In this document: piece after piece, positions 19,796 to 22,519 of the stretch
Layout of the letters: each line of letters opens with the position of its first letter
How positions within the stretch are numbered: position 1 is the first letter of the stretch
Assembly: GCA_951406725.2 (NCBI GenBank)
Contig: OX597824.1
Span: 75,826,001-75,890,000 of the forward strand
Source: Octopus vulgaris
Taxonomy: Eukaryota
DNA: 64,000 bases
Reading direction: 5' to 3'
Program-made: the position numbers and the translations under genes
Notes under the pieces: model-generated
Database searches by the model: none
Told to the model about the DNA's origin: nothing
What the model saw: the letters and a program-made list of their open reading frames with translations, nothing else

Positions 19796-20256
19796 TATAT
19801 ATATATGTATATATATATATACGAGAAAAGAAGCAACAAGAATGGATTAGTTTTTAGTACAATTGTTTCATGTTGCTTCTTTTCTCGTTTATAATCACCC
19901 CACACTACTGTATTGGTTAACACCATATAGTTTTCTGGTGCATCTAAGTTAAGTACCGCATTCAAGTGAATTCATTAGAATCGACTTGAATCTTAATTGC
20001 TTTTATATATATATATATATATATATATAATTAATCAATATAGGGTGGCAAAAAAAATTTTTGTAGAATTCTTTTGCCACCAGCGGCCTAGTAGGAAAAA
20101 ATTAAATAGTCATAAACTATTTTTACATTCAACATCACAATCAAGGAACGGCCATAATAGGCCATTCACCCACTAGAAATAACAGCCAAAAGCTTTAACC
20201 GCAAAATAACATTAATTCCGTAAACCAGGAGAAAATTGAAAAACTTTTACCCTGTA

Positions 20257-20363
20257 ATTTCTTAGACGATGCACCGTTTCATCTACCGTTTAATGGTAAA
20301 CTAACCTGATTAAATTAAATCAAGCCAATCCACCATAGGCCCTTAGACTCATCAGTAAGAAAT
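20257..20363 (-). ncRNA. Type I hammerhead ribozyme, extended stem II
   Basis: Reverse complement of 21003-21109. Confidence 0.88.
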
Positions 20364-20747
20364 AGCCAAGTCGGAACAGATATTTTTCACGAGGCATTCC
20401 TCTTGCTACCTCGGCAATATCTGACCTAAAATTTTCAAATCGTCGCACTCGCGCCAAATTTATCGGCAGCAAATAAATATAAGCCACCGATTCCATTACG
20501 GAACTAACCAGAAAATTCATAATTAATCAATATAGGGTGGCAAAAAAATTTTTGTAGAATTCTTTTGCCACCAGCAGCCTAGTAGGAAAAAATTAAATAG
20601 TCATAAACTATTTTTACGTTCAACATCACAATCAAGGAACGGCCATAATAGGCCATTCACCCACTAGAAATAACAGCCAAAAGCTTTAACCGCAAAATAA
20701 CATTAATTCCGTAAACCAGGAGAAAATTGAAAAACTTTTACCCTGTA

Positions 20748-20854
20748 ATTTCTTAGACGATGCACCGTTTCATCTACCGTTTAATGGTAAACTAACCTGA
20801 TTAAATTAAATCAAGCCAATCCACCATAGGCCCTTAGACTCATCAGTAAGAAAT
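20748..20854 (-). ncRNA. Type I hammerhead ribozyme, extended stem II
   Basis: Reverse complement of 21003-21109. Confidence 0.88.
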
Positions 20855-21002
20855 AGCCAAGTCGGAACAGATATTTTTCACGAGGCATTCCTCTTGCTAC
20901 CTCGGCAATATCTGACCTAAAATTTTCAAATCGTCGCACTCGCGCCAAATTTATCGGTAGCAAGAGGAATGCCTCGTGAAAAATATCTGTTCCGACTTGG
21001 CT

Positions 21003-21109
21003 ATTTCTTACTGATGAGTCTAAGGGCCTATGGTGGATTGGCTTGATTTAATTTAATCAGGTTAGTTTACCATTAAACGGTAGATGAAACGGTGCATCGT
21101 CTAAGAAAT
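21003..21109 (+). ncRNA. Type I hammerhead ribozyme, extended stem II
   Basis: Stem I ATTTCTTA/TAAGAAAT; core CTGATGA (21011-21017); stem II GTCTA/TAGAT enclosing a 19-bp hairpin; GAAAC (21086-21090); stem III ACG-GTGCAT-CGT; cleavage triplet GTC, cut after 21101. Confidence 0.9.
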
Positions 21110-21492
21110 TACAGGGTAAAAGTTTTTCAATTTTCTCCTGGTTTACGGAATTAATGTTATTTTGCGGTTAAAGCTTTTGGCTGTTATTTCTAGTGGGTGA
21201 ATGGCCTATTATGGCCGTTCCTTGATTGTGATGTTGAACGTAAAAATAGTTTATGACTATTTAATTTTTCCTACTAGGCCGCTGGTGGCAAAAGAATTCT
21301 ACAAAAATTTTTTTGCCACCCTATATTGATTAATTATGAATTTTCTGGTTAGTTCCGTAATGGAATCGGTGGCTTATATTTATTTGCTGCCGATAAATTT
21401 GGCGCGAGTGCGACGATTTGAAAATTTTAGGTCAGATATTGCCGAGGTAGCAAGAGGAATACCTCGTGAAAAATATCTGTTCCGACTTGGCT

Positions 21493-21599
21493 ATTTCTTA
21501 CTGATGAGTCTAAGGGCCTATGGTGGATTGGCTTGATTTAATTTAATCAGGTTAGTTTACCATTAAACGGTAGATGAAACGGTGCATCGTCTAAGAAAT
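21493..21599 (+). ncRNA. Type I hammerhead ribozyme, extended stem II
   Basis: Identical to 21003-21109, 490 nt downstream; predicted cut after 21591. Confidence 0.9.
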
Positions 21600-22519
21600 T
21601 ACAGGGTAAAAGTTTTTCAATTTTCTCCTGGTTTACGGAATTAATGTTATTTTGCGGTTAAAGCTTTTGGCTGTTATTTCTAGTGGGTGAATGGCCTATT
21701 ATGGCCGTTCCTTGATTGTGATATATATATATATATATATATATATATATATATATATATATATATATATATATATATATATACATACATACATACATAC
21801 ATACATACATATATATATATATATATATATATACACACACACATACATATATATATATCAATTAAGTAACAAGGGTGTCCAGGTATCAGTACATTATGCC
21901 TCTTTCAAGCAGCTCTATTTAATCGATGAATGAAAACATTACATCAATTTGAAATAAACCTCTCTCCTTGGGTGCAGACGACTATATAGATTGCCAACAT
22001 ACAGGATACTCCATTACAATTTTTTAGCAAATTTTTCATCAGCACTAAAGACTAAAATAATTACATTGCTTCTCTTTGCCATTTTGGTGGCAGAATGAAT
22101 TTAAGGAAAAAAATACTTAAAGCTTACTTTAATTAAGAGTGGCAGAAGAAAATAATGGGTGTCAAGATAGAGGAATGCTGATATAGCTACGTTCATCTTT
22201 ATCCTTATCATTTTTCAAAAGACTCAAAGCAGCATGTAGTCTAAACTCTTTGGAATTAAACCCATTGGAAATTGACAGTTAAGTTTTTGTTGGTGGTGAT
22301 AAATTAATTAATGTCAGATACTCACCCCTACCCCTATTTTACAGGAACCATAAAAGCAACCAGTTCTACATAAAAGAATATGTCTCAGACATTGCTAGTA
22401 ACATAATGATATATAGAGAAGGGGTGATAACCAGAAAGAGGAAAGATGGCAGTGACTTAACATATTATGATTATAAAATAAAAGGGGCCTAAAGTTGAAA
22501 ACAAAAGAGGTCACAATAA

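Follow-up and report, generated by a model that had tools for sequence, protein, structure and literature searches.

The palindromic array of hammerhead repeats at positions 20027–21722 of the window (the whole 64,000-nt stretch of Octopus vulgaris DNA analysed here) is a single insertion of 1.9 + 1.6 units, with four hammerhead cores and two whole monomers, and is one ordinary copy of its family. By sequence criteria this family, an ORF-less 490-nt type I hammerhead repeat, is a non-LTR retrozyme. We consider it probable that the array was made from an ORF-less hammerhead repeat RNA copied in trans by the protein of a Penelope-like element (PLE) via twin priming. Unit positions 1–490 are numbered from plus-strand cut site to cut site (21102–21591), and the features of the locus are the following.

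19816–20010, unstranded: neighbour outside the element, a tiny end fragment with two arms that comes from an autonomous PLE family (94–98% to L103, 83–89% to L171)
20004–20029, unstranded: (TA)n target, left side; the fixed outer ends at the examined loci all enter (TA)n or AT-rich DNA
20027–20963, minus strand: left arm, 937 nt, 1.9 units; outer (long) end at unit position 236, inner end at 283
20027–20133, minus strand: "tail", unit positions 132–236, on the left outer end only; the inverted repeat begins at 20134
20259–20361, minus strand: type I hammerhead motif, predicted cut after 20265
20265–20755, minus strand: whole monomer, cut site to cut site, 491 nt
20750–20852, minus strand: type I hammerhead motif, predicted cut after 20756
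20956–20963, unstranded: head-to-head joint of the arms, an 8-nt overlap with 7 matches and 1 mismatch (microhomology)
20956–21722, plus strand: right arm, 767 nt, 1.6 units; inner end at unit position 345, outer (short) end at 131
21005–21107, plus strand: type I hammerhead motif, predicted cut after 21101
21102–21591, plus strand: whole monomer, 490 nt, 36.5% G+C, without ORF; the reference unit
21495–21597, plus strand: type I hammerhead motif, predicted cut after 21591
21721–21858, unstranded: (TA)n/(TACA)n target, right side

The left arm runs through unit positions 283–490, 1–490 and 1–236 and the right arm through 345–490, 1–490 and 1–131, and the outer ends are thus unlike. The first-pass annotation of this DNA had described four units in tandem pairs; the four cores stand, whereas the pairs are actually the two arms of unequal length that overlap by 8 nt. 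The tail contains a 15-bp hairpin that finishes ~18 nt short of the outer end. The array entered the (TA)n flank of the PLE end fragment lying directly on its left. The longest ATG frame in the unit is 66 aa, and the unit holds no ORF combining RT and GIY-YIG domains such as defines an autonomous PLE.

Cores of the form CUGAUGA...GAAA...GUC lie at 20355 and 20846 on the minus strand and at 21011 and 21501 on the plus strand. Predicted cleavage follows 20756 and 20265 (491 nt apart) and 21101 and 21591 (490 nt apart), which confirms the coordinates first given for four complete cores. Comparison with the Rfam hammerhead models, suggested at the first reading, recovered the cores below threshold: Hammerhead_1 (RF00163) matched all four at 22 bits (E 0.026), under the gathering score of 34, a shortfall explained by the long insert in stem II. 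A scan of the whole 64-kb window listed none of the four cores. Rfam miRNA matches over the palindrome centre were rejected as hairpin artefacts, and a regex census of cores, which matched only 5 copies, was set aside. The ribozyme has a stem I of 8 bp, a stem II of 5 bp plus a 19-bp hairpin, and a stem III of 4 bp with a self-complementary 12-mer. Folding of the 113-nt hammerhead domain gave a z-score of −4.45, and 9 of 36 pairs changed on both sides among 17 variants (0/500 shuffles; slid controls 0–3); these variants comprise the family and two distant relatives, whose kinship can beat the shuffle control, and the result is to be read as support rather than as a probability. Across the same 17 variants position 7 accepts any base and the cleavage triplet reads GUC or GUA; the other core residues are kept, bar one U4C. 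Folding, covariation and the recurrence of the architecture at 66 of 100 end-selected loci (see below) indicate that the array is more than chance.

Computed folds point to a ribozyme that works in tandem. The minimum fold of the monomer (−34.7) hides the core, with the active form at −30.5, while the minimum of the dimer co-fold is a double hammerhead with free cores (−78.9 vs 2 × −34.7); activity as a double hammerhead is therefore predicted for the unit as a dimer, in line with the dimer model of PMC4209133. The right arm on its own is predicted to fold into half of such a double hammerhead. In the predicted fold of a whole-palindrome transcript, 106 of 106 nt of each ribozyme are inside the long hairpin on either strand, and a productive transcript would therefore have to begin within the element. 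The idea that read-through from either side would free a monomer is thus unlikely, as in the model the antisense arm is met first and the ribozymes are locked in the hairpin.

A search of the octopus's own genome (2.8 Gb) with the unit returned 885 candidates, of which the best 40 were scored. Exact end patterns abutting TATA occurred 431 times at "131" and 832 times at "236" genome-wide, with 0 in the control, and the family therefore numbers at least 832 insertions in (TA)n; an exact pattern count also gave 426 cores of the window subfamily. We examined 140 of these (at least 832) loci: the best 40 BLAST loci and 100 end-selected loci, the latter taken in list order from the end patterns on two contigs (C1 and C2) and split into 60 for discovery and 40 as a replicate. 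Matches below 85% identity and 10 of 175 segments with non-canonical outer ends were left out before counting, and 165 arms remained.

Of the 100 end-selected loci, 66 are two-armed, 29 one-armed, 1 double and 4 unclassified. The palindrome is therefore not special to this locus but the family's usual insertion form. Arms longer than one unit make up 59 of the 165, and 19 exceed two units (the longest ~3.5 kb); all cycle through the unit, and arrays reach up to 7 units. The genome-wide search for free arrays as against PLE-joined copies, proposed with the first reading, came out on the side of free arrays, with no PLE ORF joined to the unit among the 100 end-selected loci. Since arms cycle into the unit and no ORF is joined, a coding element whose truncated end the family might represent is not what these copies reflect. 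The assignment to non-LTR retrozymes relies on tandem repeats in which two or more consecutive units carry a type I hammerhead, on the lack of coding capacity at 36.5% G+C, apparently without an LTR/PBS/PPT layout (judging by the TA-joined ends), and on dispersal as a multi-copy family. Copies of 88–95% identity could be read as old; we rejected this, as they form parallel young subfamilies. The description of the array as retrozyme-like, non-autonomous, young and probably moved by PLEs is thus supported.

A sister family of 475 nt, with 72% identity, is collinear around the whole unit, has the same two ends and yielded 1,834 candidates. Sister retrozyme families of ~70–72% to the unit, with equal two ends, are seen at L149:2294–2749, L213:1825–2300, L100:3500–4122 and L248:568–1137; the L100 copy was considered as a unit adjoining a PLE ORF and rejected, being a ~70% relative that ends in (TA)n apart from the ORF. 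Unrelated type I hammerheads that also end in (TA)n were seen at L177:6680–7311, near 7499 in L102, near 4808 in L103 and near 661 and 1273 in L217; that of L177 recurs every ~505 nt and might represent a separate retrozyme family. Contigs of unlabelled runs covering the unit were set aside as uninformative on expression, strand or circles.

A strict regularity of the family lies in its outer ends, at 131 and 236 nt past the cleavage site. All 66 two-armed loci among the 100 end-selected ones pair one 131 end with one 236 end (37 in discovery, 29 in the replicate) and none is alike-ended; one end per locus was fixed by selection, while the partner end was free. The same pairing holds at 25 of 25 two-armed loci among the best 40 BLAST loci and, in the equivalent form, in 14 of 14 two-armed rows of the 475-nt sister family (some are duplicates), and an autonomous family with a 727-aa ORF follows the one-of-each rule at all 5 loci where both ends could be seen. 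Target duplications of 15 nt, edges included, were read at five loci with informative flanks (L033, L039, L046, L053 and L066), the remainder of ~68 lying in pure (TA)n. The arms are joined over a small overlap, bluntly or through a short filler (−18 to +31 nt). At one locus (L055:5397–5460) the inner end is joined through a templated filler, the opposite flank copied in inverted orientation.

Three features expected of movement by EN+ PLE machinery are found: an inverted 5′-truncated arm placed head to head (66/100 loci), two fixed 3′ ends with a tail on one, and an AT-rich or microsatellite target with a short duplication. In L1 twin priming, both nicked strands prime cDNA, which leaves an inverted 5′ part, a microhomology joint and one duplication; unlike in L1, the second priming site in the octopus family is fixed and the two cDNAs span one and the same stretch of template. 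We also considered whether the 236 arm is blocked at the 131 site in the manner of L1, and rejected this (7/66, near a rough hand estimate of 5, no significant excess).

Either arm can be much the longer, the 131 arm by >100 nt in 19 of 66 loci and the 236 arm by >205 nt in 15 of 66, which means that neither arose from the other by folding back. We give almost no credence to the palindrome being an assembly fold-back artefact. Such an event, or a later fold-back, does seem to have occurred at one PLE locus, L090:850–7700, which is mirrored including its flanks and has two short ends; it is probably a fold-back duplication or an assembly artefact. Against this, the retrozyme palindromes have different fixed arm ends, unlike flanks and asymmetric arm lengths, the pattern holds at 66 of 66 loci, and other families repeat it.

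The inner ends of the arms carry a second footprint, at the ribozyme's own cut site. Ends reached on the first pass through the unit fall within positions 1–30 in 34 of 73 cases against 9.3 expected from the length travelled (3.7×, p = 1.5e-12; 100 loci), and in 12 of 29 against 3.7 in the replicate alone (p = 1e-4). On later passes the 100 end-selected loci gave 5 of 92 against 3.4 expected (p = 0.26). The two arms of a locus agree: where both reach position 30, 41 of 42 loci are concordant (in 11 both arms stop, in 30 both cross and in 1 they differ; Fisher p = 3e-9; replicate alone 4/0/0/12). The first-pass pile-up could instead reflect reverse transcriptase stalling at stem I, with no role of the ribozyme in insertion. 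The stop points are scattered over 1–28 rather than at 1, a stall would likewise vanish on later passes, with the RNA then in a hybrid, and arms co-terminate elsewhere too (both end within 10 nt of one position at a further 10 of 47 loci, 2.35 expected), so that agreement is not specific to the cut site. However, nine arm ends lie at positions 1–8, within the stem, and longer hairpins show no excess (positions 181–210, 7 against 6.6 expected; 451–480, 3 against 5.7). The core residues are also kept, while N7 and the cleavage base vary as a ribozyme tolerates. We judge stalling alone to be distinctly improbable.

Sequence variants within loci bear on the template itself. In the best 40 loci, 41 variants are fixed, being shared by every unit of their locus in one arm as in the other (300 shuffles: mean 1.07, maximum 8), beside 7 partial and 81 single variants, some of the latter of which may be assembly errors; homopolymer columns 196–215 and 8 nt at partial ends were left out of the count. 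Unit junctions are exact in 140 of 142 cases. Units of one locus are ~99.6% alike, across arms too, even when 7–11% off the window unit; only 9 of 28 loci have a within-locus distance smaller than their distance to the nearest other locus, the two distances being ~0.3–0.4%, a comparison of little power. The substitutions between copies had been taken as a sign of duplication, a reading that is not supported, as a single haplotype runs through both arms, which stem from one insertion. Most simply, the two cDNAs were both made on one RNA, either cut or continuous. A one-unit bottleneck with exact junctions is the expectation for a covalent circle, and a circle has been proposed as the template of retrozyme arrays (PMC4209133, PMC7229834, PMC7761336).

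Alternatively, the same family and PLE twin priming could have operated on linear multimeric RNA transcribed from a donor array and cut only in part by a slow ribozyme, with no need of a circle. Partial and periodic variants exist inside arrays: those of L156 have period 3 and those of L061 period 2, L116 has arm-specific variants, and L153 is a mixed locus. Circular multimers or a pair of templates may be what the variants of L156, L061 and L116 record; this minority of loci has to be explained by multimer templates, whether linear or circular, or by later recombination. A linear multimer would also fit the later-pass ends at positions 1–30 in the best 40 BLAST loci (7 of 62 against 2.8, p = 0.023) and L033, where both arms end exactly at position 1. 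Unprocessed RNA was moreover the main substrate in vitro (PMC11167929), and 8 of 9 Xenopus retrozyme dimers stayed uncleaved in vitro (10.64898/2026.07.22.740005). On the other hand, the locus-wide fixed variants would need a one-unit bottleneck or fast homogenisation, and unit-specific variants are seldom common to both arms (3 of the 7 partials, beside the 81 singletons). The later-pass excess is absent in the unbiased 100 loci, and L156 itself has 7 units with one variable column. We therefore see the linear template as unlikely, though the most deserving of weight among the alternatives considered here.

It has also been proposed, for vertebrate retrozymes, that arrays grow after insertion, and local array growth has been suggested alongside a derivation of retrozymes from PLE terminal repeats (10.64898/2026.07.22.740005). 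Applied to the octopus family, arrays would grow by unequal crossing-over from a solo PLE terminal repeat, with which the periodic variants of L156 and L061 and the adjacent shared variants of L033 and L060 agree. Yet arrays occur in both inverted arms inside one ~15-nt duplication, inner ends lie at scattered positions, and the near-identity of units spans both arms even in loci 7–11% off the window unit. No parent repeat is found among the matches listed, and the sister family is collinear over the whole circle. Growth after insertion is in our opinion very improbable, and the data favour arrays made at insertion over local growth.

Elsewhere the genome contains at least four PLE-type families that are young and intact; they carry motifs of RT and endonuclease as well as type I hammerheads, target (TA)n and have their two ends 72–117 nt apart. 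Their representatives are L090/L091 (~1090 aa), L170–L174 (980 aa), L175–L177 (842 aa) and L215–L226 (727 aa). Pfam and PDB gave no match for these ORFs, and the PLE call is made on motifs and architecture; a Cys motif ahead of the endonuclease suggests that they are Neptune-like. The longest ORF (L090/L091) has an asparagine-rich insert, as described for rotifer Penelope. The parent was sought with proteins from two relics in the window, one RT stretch and one outside homologue, leading to 20 + 20 + 20 + 12 loci; in each search the best 70–150 of 9,481–29,760 candidates were scored. Among the matches listed, the unit has no similarity to the termini of the four families; an antisense match in L222 (21/25, E 0.014) was treated as chance. 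The family is therefore tied to the PLE machinery by mechanism, without a sequence link to these four. The GIY-YIG relics in the window, once seen as a possible source of the mobilising protein, are real (41% and 57% identity to intact ORFs), but they are decayed, 5–20 kb off and, since intact young families exist elsewhere, bystanders.

Among known systems, the unit most resembles the animal non-LTR retrozymes (PMC7229834; 10.64898/2026.07.22.740005), which are ORF-less tandem repeats of low G+C with one type I hammerhead per unit, dispersed in genomes alongside PLEs; circle-templated multi-unit cDNA and mobilisation by PLEs have been proposed for them in the same works. The octopus unit, whose retrozyme class is known here from its sequence, is 490 nt long with a long stem II insert, against 170–400 nt (PMC7229834) or 51–972 nt (10.64898/2026.07.22.740005) for retrozymes. 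While 21 of 57 Xenopus retrozyme families were matched to PLEs (10.64898/2026.07.22.740005), the octopus unit resembles none of the four host PLE termini. The inverted two-armed form, the fixed ends and the target preference are features of the octopus family, and the words "inverted" and "microsatellite" occur 0 times in the accessible part of PMC7229834. The double hammerheads of newt, axolotl and PLE repeats (PMC4209133, PMC7229834) have a weak stem III with a self-complementary loop, as has the unit, with four pairs within a 12-nt self-complementary stretch; unlike in those ribozymes, activity of the dimer is here a prediction.

With the insertion unit of EN+ PLEs (PMC8557442, PMC3846280) the family shares head-to-head inverted arms, a one-ended tail, (TA)n bias, a short duplication and a type I hammerhead upstream of the ends. 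It differs from EN+ PLEs, as these papers describe them, in having no ORF, in whole-unit arrays of up to 7 copies and in a strict one-of-each rule that could be counted. Its tail is 105 nt, against 30–40 nt in the PLE papers (PMC8557442, PMC3846280), though the host's autonomous families have tails of 72–117 nt. In vitro, Poseidon of Anolis carolinensis cuts and extends both DNA strands, and two internal RNA start sites bound its tail (PMC11167929). Two priming sites and an AT-rich target are thus common to both. However, for Poseidon no difference in start site between strands was seen, cleavage was unneeded and no reads ended at the cut site (PMC11167929), whereas octopus insertions always have a different site at each of their two ends, and their arms stop in excess at the cut site. 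Retrozymes and the inverted and tailed ends of PLEs are already known, and the population-level footprints are the new part: in the main texts of the open-access literature searched, we found no report of the one-of-each rule, of the ribozyme-site pile-up or of this octopus family.

Other features of the window were noted in passing. A 1,055-aa low-complexity frame at 53887–57054 ends in a RING-like Cys/His pattern and is presumably the first exon of a TRIM-type gene. Relics at 23890–24996, 34646–35557, 14134–15000 and 1353–1874 correspond to a Pif1 helicase, which appears Helitron-like, a Tc1-type transposase and two LINE-type zinc-binding segments. A 52-nt satellite of ~31 copies with 77-nt variants lies at 42284–44165, and long hairpins with AT-rich loops at 6502–6636 and 27192–27398 are likely small inverted-repeat elements.

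We hypothesize the following course of events. The unit RNA is likely cut by its own ribozyme and likely circularised in part, and a PLE protein likely reverse-transcribes it in trans. The protein would nick both strands of a (TA)n tract ~14–15 nt apart, with one strand primed at unit position 236 and the other at 131, both cDNAs being made on the same RNA. On cut linear RNA both would reach the end of the template near the cleavage site, leaving a stump of ~220 + 120 nt; on covalently closed RNA they would roll on into arrays of up to 7 units, and the two cDNA ends would then be joined head to head by end-joining. The ribozyme is predicted to act best as a double hammerhead in tandem transcripts and to be switched off by folding in the monomer, so that the circle would be protected. 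A wider reading, to which we give slightly less than an even chance, is that the family is a self-standing circular-RNA lineage, long without a coding parent and split into sister families. Its insertions would record an in vivo PLE reaction on one RNA with obligately different priming sites for the two DNA strands, in which the state of the ribozyme, cut or re-closed, decides between stump and rolling-circle array.

Retrozyme repeats are reported to show no motif pointing to the machinery that moves them (PMC7761336), their arrays have been ascribed to circles (PMC7229834) or to later recombination (10.64898/2026.07.22.740005), and the role of the hammerhead in PLEs has been called unclear (PMC8557442), with cleavage dispensable in vitro (PMC11167929). 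Hundreds of near-identical young insertions offer countable footprints on all three matters: the mover, the origin of arrays and the role of the hammerhead. Sites 1, 131 and 236 are named positions for an in vitro test with the intact host PLE proteins. If the wider reading above is true, these insertions would be direct footprints both of retrozyme circles being reverse-transcribed by rolling circle and of PLE-type insertions being shaped by hammerhead cleavage. A PLE protein that rolls around a small circle and inserts the product into (TA)n from both strands would also be a compact RNA-templated integration system.
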